From contig CAYZJA010000002.1 in NCBI GenBank assembly GCA_964479005.1, forward strand, positions 96,001 to 160,000: DNA of 64,000 bases, in the 5' to 3' direction. The notes under the pieces are model-generated. The model saw only the letters and a list, made by a program, of their open reading frames with translations, had not been told where the DNA came from and searched no databases. This document shows positions 1,387-60,340 of the stretch, one piece after another. Position 1 is the stretch's first letter. Each line of letters starts with the position of its first letter. Both the position numbers and the translations under genes were made by a program. This stretch comes from an uncultured Candidatus Saccharibacteria bacterium (lineage in GTDB: Bacteria; Patescibacteriota; Minisyncoccia; UBA6257).

Positions 1387-1779
1387 ATGGTAGAAAAAAC
1401 AAAGTCAGAAGATGTTAAAAATACTAATCCATGGCCATCATCAGAAGAAGAAGGGGAATTGGCAGTTGATCTTTGCGAAAATAAAGATGAACTAATTCTT
1501 CAGGCGGTAATCGGTGGAGTAGTAATAAGCGACTTAGATATTTCAATTACTAATGATATGATTACTATTCGAGCTGAAAGAAATAGAGAAAATAAAGATA
1601 AAATTGAAAAAGTTTATTATGACGAATGTTTTTGGGGTCCGTTTTCCCGTTCTTTAATTCTTCCCCAGGAAATAAATGCGGATAAAGCAAAGGCAACAAT
1701 CAAAAATGGCATGCTAACTATTCATTTGCCTAAACTAATGAAAACTAAAAGAAAAACTTTAAAGATTGAAGAAGAATAA
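1387..1779 (+). CDS. Hsp20/alpha-crystallin small heat-shock protein
   Basis: 130 aa with an alpha-crystallin domain pattern (ITIRAERN...GPFSRSLILP...ATIKNGMLTIHLPK). Confidence 0.8.
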   Translation: MVEKTKSEDVKNTNPWPSSEEEGELAVDLCENKDELILQAVIGGVVISDLDISITNDMITIRAERNRENKDKIEKVYYDECFWGPFSRSLILPQEINADKAKATIKNGMLTIHLPKLMKTKRKTLKIEEE

Positions 1780-1813
1780 TAGTGAGTAGATTATTGCCGC
1801 GGTGGCGGAATTT

Positions 1814-1898
1814 GCGGACGTGGTGAAATTGGAAAACACATAGGACCTAGAATCCTATGCCGAAAGGCTTGTGGGTTCGAGTCCCACCGTCCGCACCA
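1814..1898 (+). tRNA. tRNA-Leu (anticodon UAG), type II with long variable arm, CCA encoded
   Basis: Cloverleaf read by hand: acceptor GCGGACG/CGTCCGC, anticodon stem TAGGA/TCCTA, loop CCTAGAA, T-loop GGTTCGAGTCC, discriminator A. Position 33 appears to be C. Confidence 0.8.
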
Positions 1899-1912
1899 GT
1901 TCAATAAAATTA

Positions 1913-1937
1913 AAAACCCCGTTTTAACGGGGTTTTT
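1913..1937. terminator. Rho-independent terminator hairpin (CCCCGTTTTAACGGGG + T-run), bidirectional between convergent genes
   Basis: Perfect GC-rich stem flanked by an A-run and a T-run, lying between the tRNA-Leu gene and the convergent pilin-like gene. Confidence 0.6.
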
Positions 1938-1970
1938 AAATGATAGCCGAAAAATTACCAAACAATTTTT

Positions 1971-2312
1971 TTAAAAGGTAACTGTTTTTCCGAGAAATGT
2001 ACCTACTACATACATTAATCCTTTAGCTAATAATGCTACACCTATACCTATTAAAGCATGTACAAGACCACTTAATGCTTTTTTTGCTTTTTCGTCATCT
2101 CCTGCAGCAGTGATATAGAGCCACCCTGAATAGACAATGTAAAGTGCTGCTATAAAGAGCACAATATTAAAAAACCACTGTACAGTTTTTTCTAGAAGAG
2201 TCCAAATGTCAACTCCGGTTGCTGATGGAAGATCTTGTACAGTATAGGCGCCAAAAACAGGGATAGCTATCAACATTGTCATGGCTAAAATAGGCAAAAT
2301 AATTTTTTTCAT
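1971..2312 (-). CDS. TrbC/VirB2-like 'T4SS pilin' family small membrane protein (paralog 1)
   Basis: 113 aa: signal peptide, then two hydrophobic helices around a conserved Y..G.LYITAAGDDEKAKKA core, shared with the two neighbouring genes. Resembles the CPR T4SS-pilin family (Pfam PF18895-like) from memory only. Confidence 0.5.
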   Translation of the reverse strand: MKKIILPILAMTMLIAIPVFGAYTVQDLPSATGVDIWTLLEKTVQWFFNIVLFIAALYIVYSGWLYITAAGDDEKAKKALSGLVHALIGIGVALLAKGLMYVVGTFLGKTVTF

Positions 2313-2361
2313 TTTTTTATTTGATTAAAATTAGTTTCATATTCGACCTTTTTTCTTTAAT

Positions 2362-2470
2362 GTAAATTATAACAACCTTTCGCTAAAACTCAAGAACGTT
2401 GAATTAAAACTAGTAAGTTTTAATATTAACAACCTTTCGCTAAAACTCAAGAACGTTTCAATCAAAATGT
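2362..2470. repeat. Two tandem copies of a dispersed intergenic repeat (family A: ATAACAACCTTTCGCTAAAACTCAAGAACGTT...)
   Basis: Direct repeat of about 45 bp seen twice here. Reverse-complement relatives are at 14243-14300 and 45618-45676. Confidence 0.6.
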
Positions 2471-2588
2471 ATCATTTCAATTATTTAATATATATTGAAA
2501 TATATATTAAAATTAAAATAAAAGTATTTTAATTATAGCAAATTGCAATCGTGATATCAACATAAATTTTAATTTTCAAAAGGAGAAT

Positions 2589-3092
2589 TTATATTTGAAT
2601 AGACTCAGGAAGTTCATTATCTATTTCTTCTATTTCTTCAGATTCTCCAAAAATAAATTCTTCAATAATAGTGGGCACGCTGCTGGCTATTAGAACAACG
2701 CCAAATCCTATTAAAGCCCAGATAAGAGCCTTTTGCGCAGTTTTTACTTTGTCTTCATTTCCAGCAGAAGTGATATATAAATATCCCGCATAAACTACTA
2801 AGATTGCAGTGATTGGAATAGCCAATCTAATTAAGAAATTAATGATATTTTTTATTAAAGAGGTAATATCACCTGTTTCTCCATATGGGTTGATATATAA
2901 ACCAGTAGACGTTGGACTACTATCATTGGTAGAACCAACTTCTTCTTCGGTGTTTCCGATTTCCACATCAATAGGAATCTCTGCCTGACTTTGTATTGGG
3001 CTTAAAAATAAGCTTAACAATACTAAATTAATAATTAGAATAGTTAATAAGACGATATTTATTTTTGTAGAATTTTTTGACATTGATTTCAT
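2589..3092 (-). CDS. TrbC/VirB2-like 'T4SS pilin' family membrane protein (paralog 2)
   Basis: 167 aa: signal peptide, then a YAGYLYITSAGNEDKVKTAQKALIWALIGFGVVL core homologous to paralog 1, with an acidic C-terminal tail. Confidence 0.5.
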   Translation of the reverse strand: MKSMSKNSTKINIVLLTILIINLVLLSLFLSPIQSQAEIPIDVEIGNTEEEVGSTNDSSPTSTGLYINPYGETGDITSLIKNIINFLIRLAIPITAILVVYAGYLYITSAGNEDKVKTAQKALIWALIGFGVVLIASSVPTIIEEFIFGESEEIEEIDNELPESIQI

Positions 3093-3098
3093 AATTGG

Positions 3099-4412
3099 TT
3101 AATTATTATTAAACTCACATTTTCCTCCTGGTCCAAAAGTGTTTGTGAATTCACAGTCTCCAAGAGAAATACATTCGTCTTTATCGCAAACATTAAACAA
3201 ACCTATTCCACAGTTTTCACATTTAGATTCTAGTTCTATTTCTGGTTCTGTCTCTGGTTCTACTGGGCTGACGGGTGTTTCATCGTCTTCTGAGATACAA
3301 TAAGCAAAAGATTTACCTTCTGGGCTTGGGCTATTAATATTGCTTTTTCCAAAATCACAATGCCATCCATTCCCATAAATTTCTCCTGGCGGATTGAGTA
3401 ATTTACTTGGTTCTACGGCAAGACAGAAACCATCTTTTATCTTTTTTTCTATTCCACACTCAGCTGCTCCAGAAGCTTGATTACAGTTCTGATCCCACTC
3501 AGGGCACATAATTGGATATTCAATCCATTCTCCATCTAAATCGGGATATTTTTCTTCTATTTCATCTTTCTTCTCATTAATTTGTTCTTCAGGAGGAGTA
3601 TAATCAGGATCAATAATACAATCAATATATAAAGTGCCTGTTGGAGGGTAGCAAGGATTAATCTCTGAGCCAGTAGGGCTAGTATCTCCTACAAATTTAC
3701 AATATCGTCCTTTTCCATTGCTTATTATTTTATCTTCGGTTGTAATTGAATGTTCTCCTGGTTTGCATTTACTTCTATCTAATTTAAATCCATCTGCGCA
3801 TTCACGGGAGATTGTTATAGGTAAACACATTTGATTTGAATCACTAATAGTGTATTGTACAGCATTTTCCCATTCTTCTTCCTCATCAACTTCATCAACA
3901 TCCTCCTCATCAGGAATTACGTCTTCTTCTCCTTCGCTGGGAGTTGTACCGTCTTCAGGCAGATCAAGTATAGAGCCAGGTTCAGGGCATTCTATATGAA
4001 ACCAAGTTCCTGTATAATCATCACCACCCATTTGTTTGATTGTCCAAAATACAGTATTAACAATTATCCAAGCAGTCAAAATAATAATTAATCCTATAAT
4101 AGCATTTGTTATAATTTGTTGTCCAGCCTTAAGATTTTCTTCCTTACCAAGAGAGAATATCCAGCGAAATCCTCCATAGACAATAAATCCAATTATGATA
4201 AGAAAAGCCATTTCTAAGGCAAATTCTAAAACATTTTGCGTTAAGACCAATAAATCACAAGTAGTACAAGCCTGCTCACCAGGACCTCCACACGGAACCA
4301 ACCCAGCAGCGCTTGTTAAAGAAGGTGTAAAAAGCAGGAGAGTCAGGAGAGAAAAAACAATTAATTTATTATTTAATTTTGTATGTTTTATGTTCCGCGT
4401 TCCACGTTTCAT
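3099..4412 (-). CDS. Pilin-like N-terminal domain fused to a ~300-aa Cys-rich, acidic extracellular domain (paralog 3)
   Basis: N-terminal 130 aa (VYGGFRWIFSLGKEENLKAGQQ...) is homologous to the two upstream pilin-like genes. The C-terminal region has about 26 Cys and DEEDVDEVDEEEE acidic tracts. Confidence 0.5.
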   Translation of the reverse strand: MKRGTRNIKHTKLNNKLIVFSLLTLLLFTPSLTSAAGLVPCGGPGEQACTTCDLLVLTQNVLEFALEMAFLIIIGFIVYGGFRWIFSLGKEENLKAGQQIITNAIIGLIIILTAWIIVNTVFWTIKQMGGDDYTGTWFHIECPEPGSILDLPEDGTTPSEGEEDVIPDEEDVDEVDEEEEWENAVQYTISDSNQMCLPITISRECADGFKLDRSKCKPGEHSITTEDKIISNGKGRYCKFVGDTSPTGSEINPCYPPTGTLYIDCIIDPDYTPPEEQINEKKDEIEEKYPDLDGEWIEYPIMCPEWDQNCNQASGAAECGIEKKIKDGFCLAVEPSKLLNPPGEIYGNGWHCDFGKSNINSPSPEGKSFAYCISEDDETPVSPVEPETEPEIELESKCENCGIGLFNVCDKDECISLGDCEFTNTFGPGGKCEFNNN

Positions 4413-4428
4413 GTTTCACGTTTTATGT

Positions 4429-5742
4429 TTATTGTTTTTTATTCCAAAAAAGATTAATTCTATCAGATGCGGTGATTATTGCTTGAATCGGGGATTTGCC
4501 TTTATGAGTAACATCTTCTATCATTTCTTTAAATATTTGATTAATTTCCTGAAAATTATATTGATGCCAATTTTGGCTTGTTAGAATTTGTCTTGTGAAT
4601 ATTCCACTAGCAGGTTCATTAACATAATTTTGAATTAAGTCTAATCTGGCAGGGGGGTTTTTTGTTTGAAGATAATAGAATTTAGCGGTATTCTGTTGCG
4701 CAAGAAATTTTAAAAACGTCCAACATACTTCAGGGGATTTTGAATTTTGAGAAACCACTAAACTCATTGTATCCCCATAATTTATCTTGTTGGAAGAATT
4801 GGCAGTAAATTGTGGCAGAGAAGCAATACCATAATTAAGATTAGGATTGTACTCTCTTATAATCTTTTGGGCTTGATTATATCCAATTAACATAGCAGTT
4901 TCCCCTTTACTAAAAGCAATTACCGAATCAGTAAAGTTATCATTCCAAGTATAGTAACGGGAACGAGAGTCACTAAATTGAGTATAAAATTTTAATGCTT
5001 CTTCGCAAGGCAAAATTTTTTTGCCATTGATCAATGAATCATATCTAAAAGTTGTTTGTTTTTTATCTATATCAACAATATTACCGCCATATTGCATTAT
5101 TAAAGCCGATATAATATCAAAATTCCATCGAACATTATAAGGAGATCCCAATGCGATTGCTGCTCGTGTAATCTGTCCTTGATTATTAATTCTGCGCAAA
5201 CGGGAAATTAAATTAAGAACTTCTTCCCATGTGGCAGGGGGGAGAGCAATATTATAATAGTTTAAAATATCCTGATTATAATAAAGGGCTAAACTATCAA
5301 CATATAAAGGAACACCAAGCAAATAGTCACCTTTTACCAATTCATTTTTTGCTATTTGAGGATAGGTTTGGTCTAAATCAAATAAGTTTAAATCTTTATC
5401 CTTTTTTAAGTCCAAATGGGAAATTTTATTTTGATAGTAAGGAAGATTGCTATTCCAAAGCATAAAGATATCTGGAGCTTGATTATCACTAAAAGCTTTT
5501 AGGAGATTTTCATGATAAGTGTCTTCGTCTTTTAATGTATAATTAATACGAGTGTAAGGATATTTCTTTTGAAAATTATCAATTATCGGTAAAAATGTTT
5601 TAGAATCATCCAATATCCCCCAAATTTCTAAACTAACAGGTGTTGGTCTGGTTCTCTGAAATCTTATTCCTAAAAAAATAATAGAAATAATAATTAAACC
5701 GGCGACTAATAGAATCTTTTTTTGGCGTGAAGTTAATGTCAT
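4429..5742 (-). CDS. Extracellular solute-binding protein (ABC transporter SBP, family 1-like), membrane-anchored
   Basis: N-terminal TM anchor plus typical periplasmic sugar-binding-protein sequence character. No cognate permease or ATPase is adjacent. Confidence 0.55.
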   Translation of the reverse strand: MTLTSRQKKILLVAGLIIISIIFLGIRFQRTRPTPVSLEIWGILDDSKTFLPIIDNFQKKYPYTRINYTLKDEDTYHENLLKAFSDNQAPDIFMLWNSNLPYYQNKISHLDLKKDKDLNLFDLDQTYPQIAKNELVKGDYLLGVPLYVDSLALYYNQDILNYYNIALPPATWEEVLNLISRLRRINNQGQITRAAIALGSPYNVRWNFDIISALIMQYGGNIVDIDKKQTTFRYDSLINGKKILPCEEALKFYTQFSDSRSRYYTWNDNFTDSVIAFSKGETAMLIGYNQAQKIIREYNPNLNYGIASLPQFTANSSNKINYGDTMSLVVSQNSKSPEVCWTFLKFLAQQNTAKFYYLQTKNPPARLDLIQNYVNEPASGIFTRQILTSQNWHQYNFQEINQIFKEMIEDVTHKGKSPIQAIITASDRINLFWNKKQ

Positions 5743-6278
5743 TTATCTACTAATTTTGTTAGAAATCCATAGTGAGTTAATCCTAAAGATAACTCTCTTT
5801 CTACTCGAAAACCAGATTTTTCCAGTAAATCAACGCTTTCGTCTTTGCTAATTGGATAAAGTTTTTTTTGCGAAGGTAATTTATCAGGATACCATTCTAT
5901 AAGGACTAAATAACCTTCCAATCTCAATACTCTTTTTGCCTCTTGAATTAAACTTTCTTTTTTCTCAATTTCAAAAAGGATATTGGATATTAAAACCAAG
6001 TCGCAAGAATCATTTGGCAAGTTGCTTCCCCGTGTATCTTCTAAATTTGCCCAACGGGGCTCTATAATATTAAAAAGCCCTTCTAATTTAGAACGGAATT
6101 CCAAAGCTTCTAATGAAGGCTTCCAGATGTCGAGAGCTATTACTCTCCCAGAAGGTTTTAAGCACTTAGCTATTGCTAAGCTAAAATATCCTGCGCCGCT
6201 GCCAAAATCAGCAACAGTCATCCCTTCTTTTAAAGGAAGGGTTTTAACTATTTCATCTGGATTAAGAAAAGAAGTCAT
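5739..6278 (-). CDS. Class I SAM-dependent methyltransferase
   Basis: VADFGSGAGYF glycine-rich SAM-binding motif in a 179-aa protein. Confidence 0.65.
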   Translation of the reverse strand: MTSFLNPDEIVKTLPLKEGMTVADFGSGAGYFSLAIAKCLKPSGRVIALDIWKPSLEALEFRSKLEGLFNIIEPRWANLEDTRGSNLPNDSCDLVLISNILFEIEKKESLIQEAKRVLRLEGYLVLIEWYPDKLPSQKKLYPISKDESVDLLEKSGFRVERELSLGLTHYGFLTKLVDK

Positions 6279-6303
6279 AATATTTATATTATATCAAATT
6301 CTT

Positions 6304-8787
6304 TCACAATAGAGTAATTGCAGCAATTTTATCTCCTTGATCTAATCTCATAATTCTTACTCCTTGGGTTGAACGTCTTAAAATAGATATGCCGTTAAGA
6401 GGCGCTTTGAGGATTTGTCCTTTTTGGGAAACAGCAATTAAAGATTCTTCGCCTTCCACTAAACAGGATTTTATAAGATCCCCTGTTTTTGCTGTGATTT
6501 TCATTGTTTTTATTCCATGCCCTCCCCTTTTTTGTTTTCGATATTCTTTTAGGTTTGTTCTTTTTCCAAATCCATTCTCACTAATTACAAGAATTTGTTT
6601 TTTTGTTTTTTCTTCTTTAGTTTTGATAACAATTAAACTAATTACATTGTCGTTAATAGAAAGTTTTATTCCTATGACTCCGCTTGCTGAACGGCCGATT
6701 GCTCTGGCATCTTTTTCAGAAAAACGTATAGACTGGCCTTTATTAGTAGCTAAAATTATTTCGTCATTCTTATTACATAAAGCAGCGCCGATAAGCCTGT
6801 CATTTTTCATAAGTTTTAGGGCTATAATTCCTCCTTTGCGGATATTGTCATATTCTTTAAGCAAGCTTTTTTTAATGACACCTTTTTCCGTAGCCATTAA
6901 TAAGTAAGTGGAAGTAATTTCTGCTTGCTTTGAAGGATAATTTAACAAAACAATAATCTTTTCTTCAGGATTGAGATTTAGATAATTCTGAATAGTTTTT
7001 CCACGCGATGTACGGGAGGTTTCTGTAATTTCAAAAGCGCGCAATTTAAAAAGACGTCCTCGGTCAGTGAAGAACAAAATTGCATCCCTTGTATTACAAG
7101 AAACAAGATGGGTTAAAATATCTTCTTCATTTTTTGCTTCGTAAGCTGTAACTCCTTTTCCTCCTCTTTTTTGTCCCCGTAAAACATTTGGATTAAATCG
7201 CTTCACATATCCATTTTGGGAAAAGGCAATTAATGTTTCCTGCGATGGAATAAGTTGTTCTTCAGTAATGGCTTCAGGCAGATATGCCCGTACTTCTGTT
7301 CGTCGTTCATCCCCATATTTTTCTTTTAGTTTTTTAATCTCTTCTTTAATAATATTAGAAATTCTTTTTGGCTCTTTCAAAATCAATGTATATTCTTTTA
7401 TTAATTTTTGTTTTTCTGCTAATTCTTCTTCTAGTTTTTTTCTTTCCAATTTAGCCAGATTTTGAAGCCTCATTTCCAAAATAGCATTTGCCTGAACCTC
7501 ACTAAAATGATATTTAGCTATAAGTTTTTTTTGCGCGTCTTCTTTGTTTTCAGATGCTTTTATTAATTTGATAATATTATCAATATGATCTAAAGCTTTT
7601 GAAAGCCCTTCTAATATATGCCCTCTTTCTCTTGCCTTTTTGAGCAAATATTCAATGCGTCGCTTAACAATGTCTTTCCGGTGTGTAACATATTCTTCCA
7701 GGATGTCTTTTACTGAGAGAACTTGAGGCTGCAATCCGTTTTCTGTCAGAGCCAGCATATTTAAATGAAAATTCTTTTCTAGAGACGTAAATTTAAATAA
7801 TTGATTGAGAATTCTTTTTGGGATTACATTGCTTTTTAGTTCAATAACAACTCTGAGCCCTTCTTTATCAGATTCATCTCTAAGGTCTTTTATTCCTTCA
7901 ATTCTTTTTTCTTCCACCAAATGAGCGATATGAGTTATTAACTCAGCTTTATTTACTTGGTATGGGATTTCTGTAACAATTATCTTTTTTATTTTATCTT
8001 CTATGACTTCTGTTCTGGCTCGACAGATTATTTTGCCCTTTCCATTTGCATAAGCCTCCAAGATATTTTGTTTTCCAAAAATAATTCCTCCAGTTGGAAA
8101 ATCAGGGCCCTTAATAAAATTCATCAAATTTTCAACCGAAGCGTGTGAATGGTCTATTAAATATATGAGAGCATCTGCTACTTCTTTTAAGTTATGAGGA
8201 AGAATGTTTGTTGCCATTCCTACGGCAATACCCATAGTTCCATTTAGGATAAGCTGTGGTAATTTTGCTGGTAAATATTTAGGTTCTGTTCTTGTACCAT
8301 CATAATTAGATATAAAGTCTACGGTTTCTTTTTCTAAATCTTCTAACAATTCCTCGGCTAAAGGAGTTAATTTCACTTCAGTATATCTCATAGCAGCTGG
8401 AGGATCTCCATCAACGCTACCAAAATTTCCCTGCCCTTTGACTAAGGGATAACGCAATGAAAAATCTTGAGCCATTCTTACTAAGGCGTCATAAACAGCA
8501 ATGTCGCTATGCGGATGGTATTTTGCCAAGGTGTCTCCTACTACCGCAGCTGATTTTCTAGATTTTGAACCAGAACTTAAACCTAATTCATGCATAGCAA
8601 AAAGAATTCGTCTTTGCACTGGTTTAAGGCCATCTCTTACATCAGGTAATGCTCTGGAAATGATAATAGACATAGCATAATCCAAATAGGACTCTCTAAG
8701 TTCTTCAGCTATGTCTCTTGGTTGAATTGATTGGGCTTTTTCTTTTTTTTCTTCCTTTTTCTTTTTCATAGAATTCATATAAATCAA
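6304..8787 (-). CDS. gyrA: DNA gyrase subunit A
   Basis: [28 protein letters not shown] and [20 protein letters not shown] motifs. 827 aa with C-terminal beta-pinwheel repeats. Confidence 0.95.
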
Positions 8788-8806
8788 CGAATTCCGAACC
8801 TAAAAT

Positions 8807-9415
8807 TTACTGTTTATTTAATACTATTAATTTTGTTTCTCCTGGTAAATTATTTTTTCTAATAACTAATTTATCTAAAACTTCCGTTTTTTTGCTTATG
8901 GCTTTAAGGAATTTATCAAGCGAGTCTAATTTAATTTTTAAATTAGGCAAAGCATAATGCATAGGAATAATTATTTTCGGTTCTATTTGATTAATTAGAG
9001 AAATTGCTTCTTCGTAATTTATAGTATCATGTCCTCCTATGGGAACAAGGAGAATATCAACATTCGCAACTTTCTCTAAGAGTTCTTCTTTTAAATTCTT
9101 TTTCTCCAAATTTCCTAAATGACAAAGCGTTACGCCTTCTGATTTTATAAGATAAATTGTATTGGATTTTTGCGTTATTCCTTCAATAAAAATTCCTTTT
9201 GTTTCTATTTCCCCGGACCCTTCAAGTGTTAAGGGATCGCCCATAATAACACTTTTATTATTGTGGTTTTCTTGTTGTTGAGTAATGAGAAGAATGTCGC
9301 ATTTAAATCGCGGAGGTTTTAAGCCAGTTGTTAATTTAGAATAAGGATCAATAGCAATAATTTTATTTTTGCTGTCAATGCGAAAATAGGAATGACCGAA
9401 CCATTGAATAATCAT
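8807..9415 (-). CDS. MBL-fold metal-dependent hydrolase (UPF0173-like)
   Basis: MIIQWFGHSYFRI... start and LVPIGGHDT motif typical of the small MBL hydrolase family. Confidence 0.65.
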   Translation of the reverse strand: MIIQWFGHSYFRIDSKNKIIAIDPYSKLTTGLKPPRFKCDILLITQQQENHNNKSVIMGDPLTLEGSGEIETKGIFIEGITQKSNTIYLIKSEGVTLCHLGNLEKKNLKEELLEKVANVDILLVPIGGHDTINYEEAISLINQIEPKIIIPMHYALPNLKIKLDSLDKFLKAISKKTEVLDKLVIRKNNLPGETKLIVLNKQ

Positions 9416-9443: not shown

Positions 9444-10229
9444 TCAATTCAATTTTTTAAACACTCGAATACTAAGGAACGTTATAGCAATATTAAAAGC
9501 AAGAAGAAAAAGGATACATACAGGCAAAGAATGCGTAGTCATAAGTAAAATTTCTTCATTATTTAAGGACTTGGAAAGAACAACCCAGCGCAGAGCATCT
9601 ACACTATAAGCCAAGGGATTATAATTAGCCATTGTTGCCATCCAAGAGGGAACATTTTTTAGAGGGAAAAAAGCCCCAGACAAAAAAGCCATTGGTGCGA
9701 TAATTATTTGGGAGAGAATAGAAAAACTTTCCATTTTTTTTAAACGGGAAGCGAAAAAAATTCCCAAAGCGGCCATTCCATAGCCAATTAGAAAAATAAC
9801 AAGAACAATTTTTATAAATGAAGGTATGCCAATATTAATACCCAAATAGGGCATTATGAGTAGAATAAGAACACCTTGCAAAAGTGCGGTTGTAGTTGCC
9901 CCTAAGATTTTTCCTAAAGCAATATATGATCTACTAATGGGAGAAACCAGGATTTCTTTTAAAAATCCGAATTCTCTATCCCAAACAATAGACATAGTGG
10001 ACGAAATGGCCATAATGCTAACGCTTAAACCTAATATTCCAGGAAAAAAGAATTGCACAAAATCATAATGTAAAACGGGTGTAGGAAATATTGCTTTTAA
10101 TCCGGTACCAAAGAATATTAAAATTAGAAGGGGTAAAAATATAGAAGTAAAGAATTTCAAAGAATTGCGTAAATAAATGAGCACTTCTCTATACCAGATC
10201 ACATAAAGAGTTTGTAATTTTTTATTCAT
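9444..10229 (-). CDS. ABC-2 type transporter permease
   Basis: Six-TM hydrophobic protein overlapping the upstream ATPase gene by 8 bp. Confidence 0.7.
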   Translation of the reverse strand: MNKKLQTLYVIWYREVLIYLRNSLKFFTSIFLPLLILIFFGTGLKAIFPTPVLHYDFVQFFFPGILGLSVSIMAISSTMSIVWDREFGFLKEILVSPISRSYIALGKILGATTTALLQGVLILLIMPYLGINIGIPSFIKIVLVIFLIGYGMAALGIFFASRLKKMESFSILSQIIIAPMAFLSGAFFPLKNVPSWMATMANYNPLAYSVDALRWVVLSKSLNNEEILLMTTHSLPVCILFLLAFNIAITFLSIRVFKKLN

Positions 10230-11322
10230 CGTTTTTCTGTTTTTGGTTTTTTTCTTCTACTCCTGGCGAATTAAAAAGAGTAAATAAAGAAGATATATCA
10301 AATCCTTGATTTTCCTCTTCTTCTAATTTTCCATTAATTTCTTCTCTTATTTTTCTACCCGTAATTTCCAAAAAGACATCTTCTAAAGTAGGCTGTCTTA
10401 ATTGCATTGAAGTGATATGAGGGCTAATAGCCTTTACTAATATTGGCAAGAACTTATTACCATTATCTATTTCAATTCTTAATTCTTTGCCAACCCATTT
10501 AATTGGATATTTAGGAAATTTTTTTCGGAATTCTTTCTCAGCTTGCTTATTATTTTCAGTTTTAAAAATAATGATATCACCACCGATCATCCTTTTTAAA
10601 TTCTTTGGAGTATCAATAGCTACAATTTTCCCGTGGTCTATAATAGCGATTCTGTCGCATCTTTCCGCCTCATTTAGATATTGGGTGGTTAAAAAAATGG
10701 TTGTATTTTTTTTATTCCTTACAGTAAAGATATAATCCCAGATTTTTTTTCGTGTTTGCGGGTCTAATCCAATAGTTGGTTCATCCAAAAACAGAATTTG
10801 AGGCCAATGTATCAAAGCCCGGACAAGTTCTAACCTTCTTTTCATGCCGCCGGAGAATGTTTCAACTTTCATTTTTCTTTTACTCCAAAGTTCGCATAGC
10901 TTTAAGACCTCTCTTTTCCTTTGGATGAAGTCTTTTTTAGAAATTCCGTAAAGCATGGCATGGAGATAAAGATTTTCTTCGGCAGTTAAATGATTATCCA
11001 GGGTAGTATCCTGAAAAACCAAGCCTATAGATTTTCTTACAGAATCAGGTTCGTTTACTGCATGATAACCATTCACATATGCTAATCCAGAATCAGGCAA
11101 AGCAAGTGTGCAGAGAATGTTAATCGTTGTGGTTTTACCCGCTCCATTAGGGCCCAAGAAACCAAAAACTTCACCTCTTTTTACAGAAAAAGAAATCCCG
11201 TCAAGGGCTGTTATATGTTTATATCTTTTTTTGAGATTTTTTACTTGGATAACCTCAAGGATATTGTTTTGCTTTTCTTCAATTTGTTCGGATTTTTCTG
11301 ATAAATCCTTCATAAAGTTCAA
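10222..11322 (-). CDS. ABC transporter ATP-binding protein
   Basis: Walker A GPNGAGKTT, signature LSGGMKRRL, Walker B LFLDEPTIGLD. Confidence 0.85.
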   Translation of the reverse strand: MNFMKDLSEKSEQIEEKQNNILEVIQVKNLKKRYKHITALDGISFSVKRGEVFGFLGPNGAGKTTTINILCTLALPDSGLAYVNGYHAVNEPDSVRKSIGLVFQDTTLDNHLTAEENLYLHAMLYGISKKDFIQRKREVLKLCELWSKRKMKVETFSGGMKRRLELVRALIHWPQILFLDEPTIGLDPQTRKKIWDYIFTVRNKKNTTIFLTTQYLNEAERCDRIAIIDHGKIVAIDTPKNLKRMIGGDIIIFKTENNKQAEKEFRKKFPKYPIKWVGKELRIEIDNGNKFLPILVKAISPHITSMQLRQPTLEDVFLEITGRKIREEINGKLEEEENQGFDISSLFTLFNSPGVEEKNQKQKNDE

Positions 11323-11343: not shown

Positions 11344-12354
11344 TCAGATTAACCCCATTTTTTCTTTTACCTCTTTGAGTGTTTGTTTGGCAATTTGAGA
11401 CGCATATTTTTTTCCTTGTTTTAAAATTTCATCTACTATTTCAGGTTGCTCTTCATAATATTTTCTTTTTTTCTGGATTGGTTTTAATTCTTTATATATC
11501 GCTTCAGCAAGTTGATCTTTTAATCCTTTATATTTAATTCCTGAGCTAAGATAAAGTTTTTTATAAACTTTCTTTTTTTCCTTGCTTTCAAACAGTTCTA
11601 TTAACATCAATAAAACGGCCACGCCTCCTTTTTCTGGTATTTTTTTGCCTTTTCCTGAATCTGTTGGAACTTTTGCCAGCTTTTTCTTGATAGTAAGCAG
11701 ATCGTCAATTAGATTAATATAGCTGTCTGACTTTGATTTTGACATTTTTCCTTCACCAGTTAAAGAAGGGATATAAGGAAATGGCATAAGATATGTTTGA
11801 GGTTCAGGAAATGTTTGGCCAAAATGACGGTTGAAAGCTCGCGCAATTTCACGTGTTACCTCTAAATGAGGCGCTTGATCTTTGCCAACTGGAACAAATC
11901 GAGCTTTATACAAAAGAATATCTGCCGCCATAAGAATTGGATAATAAAAAAGCCCCATATTAATATATTTTGGCTGTTCTTTTTTTTTATCTTTGTATGT
12001 TGGTAATTGCTCTAAGCGGGATACAGGATAAATCGTTCCTAATAAATAGGCTAATTCTACATGTTCTGGAATTTGGGATTGGATTATTAAGTGGCATTTT
12101 TTAGGATCTAAACCGCATGCTAAATATTCTAAAACTACTTCCCGAATATTACCTTGAAGAGTTTTTGCGTTATATGGGGAAGTAATACCATGAAGGTCTA
12201 CAACTGCGTAGATACAATCATAATTCTTTTTGTTTTGGAGCTCAATATACCCCTTTAAACCGCCTAAATAATTACCCAAATGAAGAAAACCAGTAGGTCT
12301 GCTGCCGGAAAAGATTCGAGTTTTTAAATTGTCTTTTTTCACTTTTTTATTCAT
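11344..12354 (-). CDS. trpS: Tryptophanyl-tRNA synthetase
   Basis: Class I HIGH-like TGFLHLGNY and KMSKS motifs. 336 aa, which is TrpRS-sized. Confidence 0.85.
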   Translation of the reverse strand: MNKKVKKDNLKTRIFSGSRPTGFLHLGNYLGGLKGYIELQNKKNYDCIYAVVDLHGITSPYNAKTLQGNIREVVLEYLACGLDPKKCHLIIQSQIPEHVELAYLLGTIYPVSRLEQLPTYKDKKKEQPKYINMGLFYYPILMAADILLYKARFVPVGKDQAPHLEVTREIARAFNRHFGQTFPEPQTYLMPFPYIPSLTGEGKMSKSKSDSYINLIDDLLTIKKKLAKVPTDSGKGKKIPEKGGVAVLLMLIELFESKEKKKVYKKLYLSSGIKYKGLKDQLAEAIYKELKPIQKKRKYYEEQPEIVDEILKQGKKYASQIAKQTLKEVKEKMGLI

Positions 12355-12359
12355 AGATT

Positions 12360-12433
12360 TGGAGCGGGTAACGGGGATCGAACCCGTGCCTGAATCTTGG
12401 AAGGATTCTATACTACCACTATACTATACCCGC
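12360..12433 (-). tRNA. tRNA-Gly (anticodon UCC), CCA encoded
   Basis: Reverse complement folds as acceptor GCGGGTA/TACCCGC, anticodon loop CTTCCAA, T-loop GGTTCGATCC, discriminator U. Confidence 0.85.
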
Positions 12434-12511
12434 AAGTAAACAAAAGAGATCTTTAAAGACCTCTCTTTATTTTAACTCTTATTTTTCCAAAAATCAATCC
12501 TTTTTTTATCC

Positions 12512-14242
12512 CTATATCTCTTTTAATGCTTGTATTCCTAATATTTCTAATCCTTTTTCAAGGACACTAGTGATTGTCTTTAGAAGAACAAGTTGGGCGT
12601 TTTGTCTGGCTTTATTTTTTTCTTTTAACACAGGTATAGCTTCATAATATTTGTTAGTTAAATCCGCCAATGATAAAAGGTAAGTAGCTAAATTGTTTGA
12701 TGAATATTTTTCAGCGCTGGTTTGAATTATTTCCGGAAATTCAGATAATTTTTTAATGAGATAAATTTCCAATTCATTGGTTAATAATTTGCAATCATAT
12801 TTTCCGATTTTTTTGGCTTTAGTAAGAATTTTATTTATACGGGCATAGGCATATTGAAGATAAACACTGGTATCTCCTGAAAAATCAAGCATTTTTTTCC
12901 AATCAAAAACAATATCAGAAGCGCGAAATGATTTTAAATCATTAAATTTTAAAGCCCCAACTGCAATTGTTTGGGCTAATTCTTTTTGTTTTGGCAGTGA
13001 CCATTGGGATTTTTTCTCTTTAATTATTTCCAATGATTTTTCAATTATCTGATTAATAACCTGTTCAAGAGGGATAATTTCTCCTTCTCTAGTAGAGAAC
13101 TTTTTCTTTTTTTCTGACAATATCAAGCCAAATTTAATATGAACCAATTCGGTTTTTTCTTTTGGAAAAATAATTTTTGATAGAGTAAAAAGTTGTTTAA
13201 AATGAACGTCTTGTTCATTGCCAACAACATAAAGAATTTTTGCAGGATGGTATTTTTTGAAACGGTATTTTAGCAAAGCCAGATCGCGAGTAAGATATAA
13301 GCTTGCTTTGTCTGATTTTTGAATTAAGGCAGAAGGAAGATTAAATTTTTCTAAAGGAACAATAAGCGCTCCTTTGCTTTTTTGCGCCAAATTCTTTTTT
13401 TTCAAAAGATTCACTAATGGAATCAAATCTTTTTCAAGAAAGCTCTCGCCTAAAAGAAGGTCAAACTTAATATCCAAAAGTTTATATATTTTTTGAAAAT
13501 CTTTAATTGATTCTTTTTTAAACCACAGCCATAATTCTTTGTTTTCTTTATCACCTTTTTCTAATTTTTTGAATTCTTCCTGTCCTAATTTTTCTAAATC
13601 CGGATTATTTTTTATCTCCCCATGGAATTTTATATATAAAGCAAGAAGAGTAGGAATAGGATTTTTTTCTATTTCTTTTTTCCGCCCCCAAAGCTTATAA
13701 GCGGCAATTAATTTTCCAAATTGAGTACCCCAATCGCCAAGATAATTCCAGCGAATCACTTTATAGCCCAATGTCTCATATAAATTAGCCAATGTTTCAC
13801 CAATGATTGTGGAACGTAAATGCCCAATATGCATTGGTTTGGCAATATTAGGTGAGGAATAATCAATTATTATCGTTTTGTTTTTACCTATTTTTGAAAG
13901 TCCAAATTTTGTTTTTTGTTTATATATGGTTTCTAATTCTTTTTGGATAAATTCTTTATTAACGAAAAAATTAATAAAACCATTTTTAGCTAATTCTACT
14001 TTTGTTATTTCTTTTGGCAATTTTTGCTGCATCTCGTCTATTAAAATTTGGGCTATTTCAAAAGGAGATTTTTTAACATCTTTGCTAATGGAAAAGGCTA
14101 TAGTTGTACTGTAGTCTCCATATTGCTCGTTTTTTGGTATTTCTAACGAAACATCAGGAATAGAAGAAAGAGGCCATTTATTTTTTATGGCTGTTTTTTC
14201 GCATGATTTTTGAACGAAGTTTTTGATTGTTTGTTTTAGCAT
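12512..14242 (-). CDS. argS: Arginyl-tRNA synthetase
   Basis: HIGH motif PMHIGHLRSTIIGE and a C-terminal anticodon-binding (DALR-type) region. 576 aa. Confidence 0.9.
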   Translation of the reverse strand: MLKQTIKNFVQKSCEKTAIKNKWPLSSIPDVSLEIPKNEQYGDYSTTIAFSISKDVKKSPFEIAQILIDEMQQKLPKEITKVELAKNGFINFFVNKEFIQKELETIYKQKTKFGLSKIGKNKTIIIDYSSPNIAKPMHIGHLRSTIIGETLANLYETLGYKVIRWNYLGDWGTQFGKLIAAYKLWGRKKEIEKNPIPTLLALYIKFHGEIKNNPDLEKLGQEEFKKLEKGDKENKELWLWFKKESIKDFQKIYKLLDIKFDLLLGESFLEKDLIPLVNLLKKKNLAQKSKGALIVPLEKFNLPSALIQKSDKASLYLTRDLALLKYRFKKYHPAKILYVVGNEQDVHFKQLFTLSKIIFPKEKTELVHIKFGLILSEKKKKFSTREGEIIPLEQVINQIIEKSLEIIKEKKSQWSLPKQKELAQTIAVGALKFNDLKSFRASDIVFDWKKMLDFSGDTSVYLQYAYARINKILTKAKKIGKYDCKLLTNELEIYLIKKLSEFPEIIQTSAEKYSSNNLATYLLSLADLTNKYYEAIPVLKEKNKARQNAQLVLLKTITSVLEKGLEILGIQALKEI

Positions 14243-14300
14243 ATTTATATTGAAACTTACTAGTTTTAATTCAACGTTCTTGAACGAAGCGAGAGGTTGT
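14243..14300. repeat. Dispersed intergenic repeat, family A copy (reverse orientation)
   Basis: AAACTTACTAGTTTTAATTCAACGTTCTTGA... is the near-exact reverse complement of the 2368-2430 element. Confidence 0.55.
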
Positions 14301-15058
14301 TATATTAAGATTACCATGCTTAATATTATTAAATAAAGAGAAAACCAAAAGTATTTTCCTCTTTTCAATATCTTTTCTAAAATTTTTAAACTGATAATTC
14401 CTACAAAGAATGAAATTAACATCCCTAGTCCGCCTAATAAATAATTATTTTCTCCTTGTTGCATCAATGCAGGCAGTTGTAAAATAACGGCTCCAAAAAT
14501 AACAGGGAGAGCCAAAAGAAAAGAAAATTTGTAGGCAATTTCCGGCTTTAATTTTCTTAATAACCCTGCAGAAATAGTAAATCCAGAACGAGAAATGCCA
14601 GGGAAAAGGGCAACTGCTTGGGCAATTCCTATTATTAAAGCATCAAGCCATGATATTGTATCTTTTTGTGCTTTTGAATATTTGGTTGAGAAAAGAAATA
14701 AGGCAGTAATTAAAAAAGATAAACCGATAAATTTCAAAGACATAAAGCTTTGCTCTATCTTTGTTTGGAAGAAAAAACCAAAAATTGCAGCTGGAATTGT
14801 TCCAATAATAATAAGTTTAATTAATTGCCAATTTTTATTATGTAATATTTCTTTAATTTCTTGCCAAAATACTGCCAATATTGCTCCTAATGTTCCAAAA
14901 TGGAGAAGGGCGCTAAAAGCTATTGAAGCTTTTGGCAAATTCCAGAGAATTTGCAGTACCGCTAAATGACCAGAACTGGAAATTGGCAAAAACTCAGTTA
15001 TGCCTTGAGTAATAGCTAAAATAATTGTTTGAAATATATTCATATTGTTTGTCGGCAC
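14300..15058 (-). CDS. uppP: Undecaprenyl-diphosphate phosphatase
   Basis: ITQGITEFLPISSSGHL signature of BacA/UppP. Confidence 0.9.
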   Translation of the reverse strand: MPTNNMNIFQTIILAITQGITEFLPISSSGHLAVLQILWNLPKASIAFSALLHFGTLGAILAVFWQEIKEILHNKNWQLIKLIIIGTIPAAIFGFFFQTKIEQSFMSLKFIGLSFLITALFLFSTKYSKAQKDTISWLDALIIGIAQAVALFPGISRSGFTISAGLLRKLKPEIAYKFSFLLALPVIFGAVILQLPALMQQGENNYLLGGLGMLISFFVGIISLKILEKILKRGKYFWFSLYLIILSMVILI

Positions 15059-15086
15059 GTCTGACGTGCTAAGACCACGTTAAACG

Positions 15087-15160
15087 TGGTCGGGCCGCCG
15101 AGATTTGAACTCGGGCTAAATCCTCCCGAAGGATTCGTGCTACCGCTACACTACGGCCCG
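15087..15160 (-). tRNA. tRNA-Pro (anticodon CGG), CCA encoded
   Basis: C1:G72 acceptor pair (CGGGCCG/CGGCCCG), anticodon loop TTCGGGA, T-loop GTTCAAATC. The CCA end is embedded in the CCACGTTAAACGTGG palindrome. Confidence 0.8.
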
Positions 15161-16696
15161 TTATTCTACATAATATTTCTTTTTAATTTCTTTTTCATTT
15201 TCTTCTAAAAGATTTTTGTATTTTTCTTGGGCTATTTTTTGTTTTTTCTTTAATTCATTTTCAGAAAGCTGGTTTAATTCTTTCGCCTCTTTTTTTAAAT
15301 ATTTTTTATTATTCTTTTTAGAATCATCCAATACTTGTTCCAATAAAATACTTAAAATTGCTCCGATTTTAGGACTTGATTCAATGCGCAATGTTTTAAT
15401 TATATCATTACCATTTATTTTTAATATTTTAAGAGATGGTTGTTGTCCTCCCAATTCCTGTAATACTTTTTCTACGCGAAATAGAAAGTGACGAAGACGA
15501 AAAGGAAGAGCTTTGGGACATCCAGATCCTATTCTATCAGCTTCTCTTACTTGAGCTAATTCTTGAATATTTTCTTTTCCGATTTTAACTAATAATCTGC
15601 GTATAGCAGCGTCTGTAGTAATTTCCGGGTCATAAACAAAGCCGTGATAACGCACTAATTTAATAATCTTTTCTGCTTTATCTTTGGGAAATTTTAGACG
15701 GCTAAGAATACGGGCTGTAATTTTTGCTCCCTGCCATTCATGGTTATAAAAAGTAGCGTCTATACCTTCACCTTCTTTAGTATATGGTTTTCCAATGTCG
15801 TGAAATAAACTGGCAAATCTTACTTCTAGACTATACCCTTTTTCGCAGGCATATTTTAGAGAGCGCCAAGCATGTTCCCAAACAGTATAAATATGGTGTT
15901 TGTTTTGAGTTACCCCAATGCTTTTTTCTAGTTCGGGCATAATTTGTTTTAGCAAATTATTTTCTTGTAAAAGAAAAATTCCTTTAACAGCTTGCGGGGA
16001 ATTGATAATTTTAATTAATTCATCCCGAATTCTTTCTTTAGAAATAAAGCTGAGAAGAGAAGTATTATCTTTTATGGCACCCAATGTTTGTGGCTCTATT
16101 TGGAAATTTAATTCGCAGGCAAAACGAATAGCTCGCATTAAGCGCAAGCCATCTTCAGAAAACCGTTCTTTTGGGTTTCCTACTGCTCTGATAAGTTTTT
16201 TTTGCAGGTCTTTTTGTCCATTAAAAGGATCAATAATTTTATAACTTGCAGCTTGCAGCTTATAACTTTTTTCTTTAGTTTTAAGTTTTAAGTCTTGCGT
16301 TTCAAGACGAAGAGCCATTGCATTGACAGTGAAATCACGACGATTTAAATCCTCTTCAATTGTTTCAGCAAATTCTATTTTGTCAGGATGGCGCTTATCA
16401 CTGTATTTCTCTTCTTTTCTAAAAGTAGTGGCTTCAATAATTTTTAAATCTGGGTTTTTTGAATCAGTTTTTATTAAAACAGTACCAAATTCATTTTCAC
16501 AAACACTCTCAGGAAAGAGTTTTTGAATTTGTTCAGGCGAGGCATTGGTAGTAATATCCCAATCCTTTGGATCCCTTTTTGATTCTTTGGTTTTACTTAG
16601 GATAAGGTCTCGGACACATCCCCCGACAATATAGGCCTCAAAATCAGCTTGACTCAGTTTTTTTATTATTTCTAATACTTCTAACGGCATTTGCAT
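15161..16696 (-). CDS. cca: CCA-adding tRNA nucleotidyltransferase with HD domain
   Basis: N-terminal GGCVRDLIL...DWD polymerase-beta-like head and an HD motif (LFHDIGK). 511 aa. Confidence 0.8.
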   Translation of the reverse strand: MQMPLEVLEIIKKLSQADFEAYIVGGCVRDLILSKTKESKRDPKDWDITTNASPEQIQKLFPESVCENEFGTVLIKTDSKNPDLKIIEATTFRKEEKYSDKRHPDKIEFAETIEEDLNRRDFTVNAMALRLETQDLKLKTKEKSYKLQAASYKIIDPFNGQKDLQKKLIRAVGNPKERFSEDGLRLMRAIRFACELNFQIEPQTLGAIKDNTSLLSFISKERIRDELIKIINSPQAVKGIFLLQENNLLKQIMPELEKSIGVTQNKHHIYTVWEHAWRSLKYACEKGYSLEVRFASLFHDIGKPYTKEGEGIDATFYNHEWQGAKITARILSRLKFPKDKAEKIIKLVRYHGFVYDPEITTDAAIRRLLVKIGKENIQELAQVREADRIGSGCPKALPFRLRHFLFRVEKVLQELGGQQPSLKILKINGNDIIKTLRIESSPKIGAILSILLEQVLDDSKKNNKKYLKKEAKELNQLSENELKKKQKIAQEKYKNLLEENEKEIKKKYYVE

Positions 16697-16830
16697 ATTT
16701 ATGACTTTTTTACTATAATTAAAATACTTTTATTTTAATTTTTAATATATTTTAACGTATATTAAATAATAAACAATTAGTATAGTACGTTCTTCTAATC
16801 ATAAAGCAAAACAACTTTTTTTTCAATCAT

Positions 16831-16904
16831 GCCCTCGTGGTGTAACTGGATAACATTTCTGTCTTCGGAACAGAAGATTGCAGGTTCGAATCCTGCCGAG
16901 GGCA
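16831..16904 (+). tRNA. tRNA-Arg (anticodon UCG)
   Basis: Acceptor GCCCTCG/CGAGGGC, anticodon stem TCTGT/ACAGA with loop CTTCGGA, T-loop GGTTCGAATCC, discriminator A. No CCA encoded. Confidence 0.75.
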
Positions 16905-16921
16905 CGACATAAATTGTTTAA

Positions 16922-16992
16922 GCCCCCATAACTCAACGGCAGAGTAGTGGCCTCTTAAGCCATTAATCCAGGTTCGAATCCTGGTGGGGGCA
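16922..16992 (+). tRNA. tRNA-Lys (anticodon CUU)
   Basis: Acceptor GCCCCCA/TGGGGGC, anticodon loop CTCTTAA, T-loop GGTTCGAATCC. Confidence 0.75.
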
Positions 16993-17004
16993 CAAATCTT
17001 TTTT

Positions 17005-25856: not shown

Positions 25857-25931
25857 GCGCACGTAGCTCAGTGGTAGAGCGCCGCCCTTATAAGACGGTG
25901 GTCGCAGGTTCGATCCCTGCCGTGCGCACCA
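25857..25931 (+). tRNA. tRNA-Ile (anticodon UAU, putative), CCA encoded
   Basis: Acceptor GCGCACG/CGTGCGC, anticodon stem CCGCC/GACGG (one C-A mismatch) with loop CTTATAA, T-loop GGTTCGATCC. Confidence 0.6.
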
Positions 25932-58817: not shown

Positions 58818-58860
58818 ATCACTTGCTTGATTTTTTAAAAAAAGGTAAAATATATAAAAC

Positions 58861-59959: not shown

Positions 59960-60242
59960 AATTAAAAAACAAAAAAAGAATAATATTTTATTATATCTCT
60001 TAATAATTTTAGTTTTATTTTTAATTGGCTGGATAGGTTGGGGTTTTTTTAAGCCTGGAGAAATCTTTCAAAAACCAGATATTGAAGATTTACTTCCTCC
60101 TTCTTCGCAAGAATTAATTGAAGCCAAATTGGATATTGGAATAATTTCAAATCATCCTGTTTTTCAAACATTAAGCCCGCATATTACTTGGCCATTGGAT
60201 ATTCCCGATTTAGGCCGTGCCAATCCTTTTAAATCCTTCTAA
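59949..60242 (+). CDS. Small single-TM protein at the PilP position (hypothetical)
   Basis: 97 aa, TM helix ILLYLLIILVLFLIGWIGWGFF, overlaps the upstream gene by 11 bp. Confidence 0.3.
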   Translation: MAIEIKKQKKNNILLYLLIILVLFLIGWIGWGFFKPGEIFQKPDIEDLLPPSSQELIEAKLDIGIISNHPVFQTLSPHITWPLDIPDLGRANPFKSF

Positions 60243-60340
60243 CATATCGATGCTAATATACGAATTAATGCTAATGATACGAATAGAAATTAATTAGTAT
60301 AATTCGTATGCATTAGTATATTGGTATCGCATTTATTACT

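Follow-up and report, generated by a model that had tools for sequence, protein, structure and literature searches.

A solute-binding protein gene followed by tandem VirB2-like pilin genes, one of them with a fused cysteine-rich ectodomain, in a Saccharibacteria genome

VirB2-like pilins of the Patescibacteria have been surveyed by Quinonero-Coronel et al. (2025, PMC12102498), who searched 3,035 genomes with the families PF18895 (T4SS_pilin) and PF04956 (TrbC). VirB4 was detected in 2,417 of these genomes (~80%). VirB2-like pilins were present in 1,948 VirB4-bearing assemblies, with a pilin near virB4 in just 1,135 and away from it in ~40%, and 441 arrays were recorded, made up of 2-11 pilin genes that share ~25% identity with one another (PMC12102498). 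A six-pilin PF18895 array in Southlakia's type IV secretion system (T4SS) cluster is essential for growth as an epibiont (Wang et al. 2023, PMC10633639). In a 2025 FEMS review, VirB2-like pilins are said to occur in monoderm T4SSs only in the Patescibacteria, and uptake of host molecules is speculated upon (PMC12857230). A tandem PF18895 array lying away from virB4 is already a published feature of this group (PMC12102498, PMC10633639). In the current analysis we describe such an array in an uncultured Candidatus Saccharibacteria bacterium (assembly GCA_964479005.1, contig CAYZJA010000002.1, positions 96,001 to 160,000; this stretch of 64,000 nucleotides is referred to as the window), in which the pilin genes follow the gene of a solute-binding protein (SBP).

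The locus comprises four consecutive minus-strand open reading frames (ORFs) in the ORF list, which code, in the direction of transcription, for the SBP and for a long, a medium and a short pilin named p3, p2 and p1 (Table 1). Judged from sequence comparisons, it represents one case of a conserved cell-surface operon of the Patescibacteria, an SBP gene followed by a VirB2-like pilin array, and its order of SBP, long, medium and short pilin can be taken as the archetype of a distinct array class. With the Southlakia epibionticum array (SEML1_0014-0019) and the 441 published arrays it shares the PF18895 family, the tandem arrangement, an identity of ~25-35% and a signal peptide followed by a hairpin. 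The Southlakia array is, in addition, also chromosomal, has no relaxase and is followed by an Hsp20 gene. It consists, however, of six short pilins beside VirB4, PrgI and VirB6 and has no SBP, whereas the array of the window is SBP-led, is remote from T4SS genes and has a first pilin with a 295-aa Cys-rich ectodomain.

Arrays have been defined as 2-11 tandem pilin genes with at most one non-pilin gene between them and ~25% identity (PMC12102498); the window has three consecutive pilin genes at 25-34%. Neither a link between SBPs and pilins nor large fused pilin domains were found in the searched literature, including PMC12102498, PMC10633639 and their supplements. As far as this literature goes, the SBP-led organisation and the ectodomain-bearing pilin appear to be undescribed variants. 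Published surveys pool VirB4-adjacent and SBP-led arrays, which are separated in the present analysis.

Pilin family and the solute-binding leader gene

The three pilins score above the Pfam gathering score of PF18895 (26.6 bits; Table 1). Compared with one another by BLASTP, they give E-values of 3e-18, 3e-7 and 3e-10 at identities of 25-34%, a similarity far beyond chance, and are paralogs, as an earlier note made from the letters of this DNA had proposed. A custom hidden Markov model (HMM) confines the pilin module in the window to these three genes. Homologs carry the NCBI name 'pilin' and come from Nealsonbacteria/Paceibacterota; since all homologs and all the related loci described below belong to the Patescibacteria, the setting in the candidate phyla radiation (CPR) assumed in the earlier note is also borne out.

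Hydropathy analysis reveals in each pilin an N-terminal hydrophobic signal-like segment, predicted to be cleaved, followed by two more hydrophobic helices, in agreement with the signal peptide and two-helix core read earlier from the translations. The motif Y.G..YIT.AG.E.K.K, which had been regarded as common to all three, is exact in p2, approximate in p1 and only partial in p3 (VY.G...I...G.E...K), and an alignment of pilin relatives retains few truly invariant positions. p2 has in addition an acidic and Ser/Thr-containing N-terminal stretch of ~40 aa and an acidic C-terminal tail. TrbC, VirB2 and TraA (PF04956) are similar in having a Sec signal peptide, two hydrophobic helices, a short charged loop and both termini predicted outside. 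The window pilins differ from them in scores below the family cut-off, in a monoderm host and in the lack of adjacent VirB4, VirB5 and VirB6.

One genome per GTDB species was scanned with the pilin motif and 78 loci were obtained, all of them in Patescibacteria. A pilin-module HMM identified 314 ORFs in these loci, 71 of which hold two to seven. When the large ORFs were clustered, an SBP_bac_1 protein of ~437 aa, and not a T4SS ATPase, emerged as the neighbour that recurs most. It is situated at -1 of the first pilin, on the same strand and with a gap of at most 150 bp, often with a 1-4 bp overlap, in 43 of the 78 loci; of the 65 loci in which the upstream sequence reaches 1.4 kb or more, 44 have an SBP homolog directly upstream of the first pilin. 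Identity of the array-leading SBPs to the window SBP ranges from 96% to 23% by BLAST (~21-22% by alignment), and 35 of 45 match SBP_bac_1 on their own. With the SBP set at offset 0, pilins occupy +1 in 42 loci, +2 in 39, +3 in 38 and +4 in 34. The outer neighbours of the SBP-led arrays vary and include GyrA, methyltransferase, NTP-transferase, Hsp20 and PilB.

Among these neighbours, the gene of a sugar-nucleotidyltransferase (NTP_transferase, ~291 aa) directly precedes that of the SBP in 11 of the 78 loci and also in L093 (5110-5985) and L096 (4496-5371). A PilB-type ATPase is encoded in the vicinity of the arrays in ~18-20 of these 78 loci, 13 of which are SBP-led.

As the 78 loci had been chosen via the pilin, a test in the reverse direction was made with five divergent SBPs (29-34% identity to the window SBP) drawn from a profile search of the SBP family. 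Independent gene calls and precomputed Pfam assignments place PF18895 genes, from two to at least five of them, directly after each of the five, and these loci include a Big_7-pilin fusion and a 1,212-aa PKD protein. Arrays of this type have the SBP as their conserved leader gene and not as a chance neighbour. It could be argued that an ordinary receptor of an ATP-binding cassette (ABC) importer, with its permease encoded elsewhere, has come to stand by accident upstream of an unrelated pilin array. Scattered transporter genes are common in CPR genomes, long-range synteny is shared by close relatives anyway, and the window contains a second lone SBP (SBP_bac_5, 217 bits; 43668-45350, minus strand) between the genes of RNase J and iPGM, with no adjoining permease or ATPase gene. 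We consider this explanation very improbable, given that the adjacency holds at ~22-35% SBP identity while the genes of GyrA, methyltransferase, NTP-transferase and Hsp20 come and go around it, that the SBP and pilin genes frequently overlap by 1-4 bp, and that the reverse test succeeded in every case.

The window SBP exceeds the gathering score of SBP_bac_1 (26 bits; Table 1) and its nearest solved relatives are sugar ABC SBPs (E-value 1e-13). Hydropathy points to an N-terminal trans-membrane (TM) anchor at aa 10-28 and there is no lipobox; the anchor is retained in 42 of 44 family members. W172, F256 and F277 are invariant in the family, and Y76, Y264, W266 and W341 are conserved in at least 90% of its members. 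Such preservation of aromatic residues would be expected of a carbohydrate pocket.

No permease of the BPD_transp type used by ABC importers was found among the ORFs of at least 120 aa in the window (a set that includes all its large ORFs), nor within ~10 kb beyond either end. The only ABC pair of the window, at 9444-11322, is of the ABC-2 exporter type, and the gene that follows the SBP is not a permease or ATPase gene, as in the operon of an ABC importer, but a pilin gene in 44 related loci. The earlier description as a membrane-anchored SBP lacking a permease is hence upheld; the term 'orphan' is not apt for a protein that leads the arrays in 44 of 65 loci.

These features raise the possibility of an import conduit, in which a VirB2-type pilus would be run in reverse, like the archaeal Ced DNA-import system, and the SBP would be the receptor feeding it with molecules derived from the host. 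The SBP is the most conserved partner of the arrays, an importer permease is missing among the scanned ORFs of the window, many biosynthetic pathways are absent from Patescibacteria, and uptake of host molecules through the Patescibacteria T4SS or pilus has been speculated upon (PMC12857230). These points are purely circumstantial and no known T4SS uses an SBP. The T4SS of Southlakia is essential, yet no PF01547 entry occurs in its annotation table and no SBP stands beside its array; a permease could also be encoded elsewhere in the genome. We regard such a conduit as quite unlikely.

The cysteine-rich pilin p3

The long pilin p3 has 22 cysteines, and not ~26 as counted earlier. Four of them flank the hairpin and 18 are distributed over three modules of six, and with this 4+6+6+6 split every cysteine is able to pair. 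The C-terminal acidic region is ~295 aa long, and residues 126-437 contain 72 D/E against 22 K/R, which supports the acidic Cys-rich fusion noticed at first reading. Full-length homologs are found at 47-83% identity.

An alignment of 22 homologs reveals the layout of the pilin module: an N-terminal segment 'AAGLVPCGG...C..C', two TM helices, a K-containing loop and then the conserved GGDDYTGTWFHIEC. The AlphaFold (AF2) model has a helical hairpin formed by residues 51-86 and 92-129. C41, C49, C52 and C142 are invariant and lie on both segments beside the hairpin. An N-out/C-out topology is therefore probable, because four invariant cysteines flanking the hairpin only make sense on the oxidising outer side.

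Beyond a linker of low model confidence, the ectodomain is predicted to consist of two six-Cys β-sandwiches, modules A and B, and a six-Cys knot, module C (Table 1). Module B is the most conserved part (C319, C372, KDGFC). The modules are shuffled among the homologs: A or C is sometimes missing, and C is duplicated or relocated, as in P0002, P0005 and P0007. An exhaustive phmmer search of 1.84 billion cluster representatives identified just 23 clusters at E ≤ 1e-3, so that the ectodomain is rare. Modules A and B are almost confined to proteins with the same 'LVPCG' pilin module, some as tandem repeats, and module C is found as well in unrelated large Cys-rich secreted proteins. The homolog P0029 has the same 'LVPCGG' four-Cys pilin module with a different ectodomain (precomputed Pfam PF09471 and PF05345) and aligns to p3 no further than residue ~146.

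In predicted structure, modules A and B may resemble the fold of resistin and of the C-terminal Cys-rich domain (CTD) of PCSK9, at 8-16% identity and with Foldseek matches that are not significant. The structure prediction suggested in the earlier note yielded a helical hairpin and no firm fold relative for the ectodomain. Resistin and the PCSK9 domain have no sequence similarity to p3, and the p3 ectodomain differs in being bacterial, acidic and fused to a membrane hairpin. VirB5, found at the tip of the T-pilus, does not belong to the VirB2-like proteins; sortase pilins are joined by covalent bonds and bear LPXTG, both of which p3 lacks.

Long pilins are not restricted to the window. Of the 314 pilin-module ORFs, 40 (13%) are longer than 200 aa and 20 are longer than 300 aa, lengths that derive from naive ORF calls in which the N-termini can run somewhat too long. 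The extra domain is either C-terminal, as in p3, or N-terminal with the pilin module at the very end. PF18895 is reported in all ten long pilins tested, nine at or above 26.6 bits and the one in L046 just under it at 26.0 bits, and PKD arrays occur in two of the ten. Examples include a protein of 1,636 aa with seven PKD domains and another of 1,191 aa with 69 cysteines. Such long pilins with PF18895 and varied extra domains suggest that the VirB2-like hairpin is widely used as a carrier for diverse extracellular domains. They are enriched in SBP-led arrays (26 of 43, against 4 of 21; Fisher p = 0.003). The long pilin takes the first place in 20 of these arrays and the second in 6, and the final gene is short in every case (median 119 aa).

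Two or three tandem pilin modules are also found within one polypeptide, by internal duplication of the hairpin (P0030, P0031, L065 7598-9726 and L046 8831-9571).

A solitary Cys-rich fused pilin is encoded in a distant Nealsonbacteria genome (L007 10001-11155, P0017), between the gene of a CCA-adding enzyme and rpsO/pnp. Southlakia likewise has a lone, non-essential pilin beside rpsO (SEML1_0024-0025), and the rpsO neighbourhood may be a second conserved location of pilin genes. SEML1_0023, considered as an SBP beside this lone pilin, is an STT3-like glycosyltransferase and was rejected.

Gene layout, divergence and surroundings

The features of the locus are collected in Table 1. The methyltransferase and SBP genes overlap by 4 bp, and the spacing is 16 bp from SBP to p3, 6 bp from p3 to p2 and 276 bp from p2 to p1. 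This tight spacing suggests a single transcription unit from at least the methyltransferase gene on.

Table 1. Features of the SBP-led pilin locus; positions refer to the window
Feature	Position	Strand	Details
p1, short pilin, 113 aa, no Cys	1971-2312	-	PF18895 46.7 bits
p2, medium pilin, 167 aa, no Cys	2589-3092	-	PF18895 33.0 bits; starts 6 bp past p3 stop
p3, long pilin, 437 aa, hairpin and C-terminal disulfide-rich acidic ectodomain (predicted)	3099-4412	-	PF18895 35.6 bits at aa 57-121
SBP leader gene, membrane-anchored, MalE-type, 437 aa	4429-5742	-	SBP_bac_1/SBP_bac_8, Pfam 93.7 / 76.3 bits
Putative signal peptide of p3, aa 1-36, with cleavage predicted after LTSA	4305-4412	-	basic n-region, hydrophobic core; A35 invariant
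p3 pilin module, aa 37-142	3987-4304	-	invariant columns; AF2 helices
p3 acidic low-confidence linker, aa 143-177	3882-3986	-	pLDDT <50 at residues 138-176; length variable, modules inserted in homologs
p3 module A, predicted six-Cys β-sandwich, aa 178-270	3603-3881	-	
p3 helix, aa 274-288, and module B, predicted second six-Cys β-sandwich, aa ~294-374	3279-3602	-	AF2 model
p3 acidic/Pro linker, aa 379-396, and module C, putative six-Cys knot, aa 397-437	3102-3278	-	CxxCGxGxxNxCDxxECxxLGxCxF
p2-p1 spacer, promoter-like sites and direct repeat	2313-2588	-	consensus matches
Intrinsic-terminator-like hairpin, directly 3' of p1	1910-1939	-	13-bp stem and T-run; sole minus-strand terminator-like site within 1700-9000

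The p2-p1 spacer contains two sigma-70-like sites, both identified as consensus matches only. That at 2560-2532 is the best of the region, with an 11/12 match and a TG-extended -10, and the second lies at 2393-2366. A 45-nt direct repeat is also present (2365-2409 and 2422-2466; 87% identity, 57-nt spacing), each copy of which overlaps a promoter-like element, and may represent a promoter or operator of p1 that has been duplicated. As p1 has its own promoter-like sites and a terminator-like hairpin, it is probably transcribed strongly by itself in addition.

The pilins have diverged much faster than the genes around them. Compared with the closest species-level relative (L019), identity to the window is 93% for GyrA, 98% for the methyltransferase, 96% for the SBP, 92% for Hsp20 and 97% for PrsW, as against 86% for p2, 70% for p3 and 54% for p1, the fastest-diverging gene of a locus whose flanks are at 92-98%. 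The pattern is repeated in three further relatives. Such hypervariability would be expected of surface subunits that are exposed and subject to diversifying selection or recombinational replacement, and it agrees with the diversification of a surface structure proposed in the earlier note. Identical proteins occur on an NCBI contig and in JGI and Logan assemblies.

The window as a whole is a low-GC (~0.32) housekeeping stretch encoding tRNA synthetases, GyrA, PNPase, FtsH, RecG, RNase J/Y and 18 tRNAs. The Pfam family name and a weak similarity of p1 and p2 (34.4 and 35.3 bits; none for p3) to NF045849, the Mbov_0395 pilin-like conjugal transfer protein of Mycoplasma integrative and conjugative elements (ICE), could suggest that these are mating-pair pilins left over from, or carried on, an integrated ICE or plasmid. 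The NF045849 scores are below the NCBIfam cut-off of 40. The array is flanked by gyrA and by hsp20/prsW/leuS, a housekeeping setting that is conserved from species to species, the GC content is uniform at ~0.31-0.33, and none of att sites, integrase or transfer genes is seen flanking it. A mobile-element origin has been rejected, as no relaxase, VirD4 or VirB4 occurs nearby among the scanned ORFs, and a conjugative remnant or cargo is hardly credible.

Matching contigs extend the view beyond the window. To the right, ParA/ParB, RelA, TopA and DprA are encoded. To the left lies a cluster of sortase, CAP-domain and CLIPPER proteins (L091 1688-6541), which is retained in the relatives L008 and L010. 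Together with a DUF11/CLIPPER-repeat surface protein at 32836-34575 (plus strand), it adds another set of cell-surface genes in the vicinity of the array. The right end of the window (57759-62095) and L090 beyond it bear a type IV pilus cluster, which in the window comprises PilM (57759-58817), PilO (59405-59959) and a PilB-like T2SSE/MshEN ATPase (60341-62095).

An Hsp20 gene adjoins the pilin array in the window (1387-1779, plus strand) and in 29 of the 78 related loci, many of them distant. The Southlakia Hsp20 gene (SEML1_0020), directly after the essential pilin array, is itself essential and is another instance of this recurrent neighbour.

Some further features of the window are noted. 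Gene orientation and GC skew both flip near 16.7 kb (~12000-17000), with genes on the minus strand left of this point and on the plus strand right of it; the switch is origin-like in look, no dnaA occurs in the window, and ParA/ParB lie ~4-6 kb past its right end. A free-standing ORF with HTH and LAGLIDADG_3 matches, homing-endonuclease-like, is situated at 38287-39279 (plus strand) between the AI-2E transporter gene and metG. GyrA of the relatives L010 and L011 contains an intein with LAGLIDADG (1,254 aa), and GyrA of the window (827 aa) has no intein. ARAGORN identified a tRNA-Ile with the anticodon TAT (UAU) at 25857-25931 (plus strand). Such a tRNA is uncommon in bacteria, in which AUA is usually decoded by a lysidine-modified CAU tRNA.

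Possible function of the array

The reading that we favour, and to which as a whole we give an even chance, is that the array encodes a pilus-like or sheath-like structure for host contact, built by a T4SS and partnered by a sugar-binding SBP. The pilins would be exported by Sec and, after removal of the signal peptide, seated in the membrane as two-helix hairpins with both ends outside; in p3 the four invariant cysteines of the outer segments would staple the ends of the hairpin. p1, which is short, fastest-evolving and apparently equipped with its own promoter and terminator, would be the bulk subunit of the surface polymer. A T4SS of the VirB4 type encoded elsewhere in the genome would extract p1 from the membrane, a step assumed because ~80% of Patescibacteria genomes have VirB4 (PMC12102498). 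p2 and p3 may be minor subunits that join or anchor in the polymer via the same hairpin.

According to this T4SS-based reading, the acidic and fully disulfide-bonded ectodomain of p3, with its two resistin-like β-sandwiches and six-Cys knot, would contact the surface of the host cell. A role of p3 as tip adhesin is plausible, because other long pilins bear adhesion-type domains (PKD, Big_7) and the predicted fold may be similar to that of resistin and the PCSK9-CTD. The co-expressed SBP would add carbohydrate binding at the same site, for recognition of host glycans or capture of host-derived sugars, and the fast divergence of the pilins could reflect adaptation to different host surfaces.

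Several observations weigh against this reading. The likeness to TrbC/VirB2 put forward in the earlier note is only partly sustained: p2 has a weak match to PF04956 (21.4 bits, E-value 2.9e-4) that is below the gathering score of 27.9 bits, and p1 and p3 have none in the Pfam scan. The pilin module matches no solved conjugative pilin in sequence, and searches of the PDB with profiles of the p3 family and of the pilin module gave chance-level matches only (designed proteins, sodium channels). The Pfam scan of the window ORFs found no VirB4, VirB6, VirD4 or relaxase, and no T4SS genes occur within ~10 kb past either window end on matching contigs; the earlier remark that such genes are missing nearby is correct, and the array is not encoded together with VirB4 and mating-pair-formation genes as PF04956 pilins are. 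To our knowledge, filaments have been demonstrated for no PF18895 protein, canonical VirB2-type pilins are not known to bear a large fused ectodomain, and a 295-aa domain on a VirB2-type subunit is without structural precedent. Such a domain may not fit sterically into the lattice of a helical pilus.

The distribution of VirB4 in the survey also bears on this question. A VirB4-like ATPase (DUF87 and T4SS-DNA_transf) is encoded within 10 kb in seven loci, which carry five short pilins and none of which has an SBP, and VirB4 is found within 10 kb in none of the 44 SBP loci. SBP-led and VirB4-adjacent arrays are mutually exclusive in this sample, a pattern that fits a T4SS-independent role equally well. 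The PF18895 hairpins might instead oligomerise in or just above the membrane, with no extended pilus, and form a platform on which the anchored SBP and the paralogs with ectodomains are kept in the envelope, in order to capture substrates or to adhere.

This T4SS-independent platform stays a serious alternative because of the exclusivity in the sample, and we consider it possible, if somewhat unlikely. The tight translational coupling of the SBP to the first pilin and the use of pilin modules as N- or C-terminal anchors of very large ectodomains, up to 1,636 aa, are in its favour. A precedent is the Sulfolobus bindosome (Bas), a structure of the cell envelope built from sugar-binding proteins and several small pilin-like proteins that are functionally coupled (PMC3047682). 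The bindosome, however, is archaeal and is made of type IV pilin-like subunits with class III signal peptides and a PilB/PilC-type assembly pair, whereas the window has VirB2-like pilins and an SBP with a plain TM anchor and no class III signal peptide, so that the likeness is a functional analogy only. The family is moreover homologous to the arrays of the Southlakia T4SS cluster, whose pilins are essential together with VirB4, VirB6 and PrgI (PMC10633639), and VirB4 is present somewhere in most Patescibacteria genomes (PMC12102498).

A bolder proposal can be made tentatively, and we think it doubtful, that the SBP-led VirB2-like arrays constitute a distinct and unrecognised apparatus of the Patescibacteria, in which a polymer of T4SS-type pilins is physically coupled to a carbohydrate-binding protein and to swappable adhesin-like ectodomains, for the recognition of host glycans, for the capture and import of molecules derived from the host, or for both. 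If true, it would be a bacterial counterpart of the archaeal bindosome or of Ced import and would offer a handle on the part played by T4SS-type pilins in the epibiotic lifestyle. The Patescibacteria account for a considerable part of bacterial diversity and spend their lives attached to other microbes; in the single species in which this was tested, their T4SS and VirB2-like pilins proved essential. The SBP-led arrays provide two testable leads, namely what the structure binds, that is the ligand of the SBP and the target of the ectodomain, and whether a T4SS builds it.

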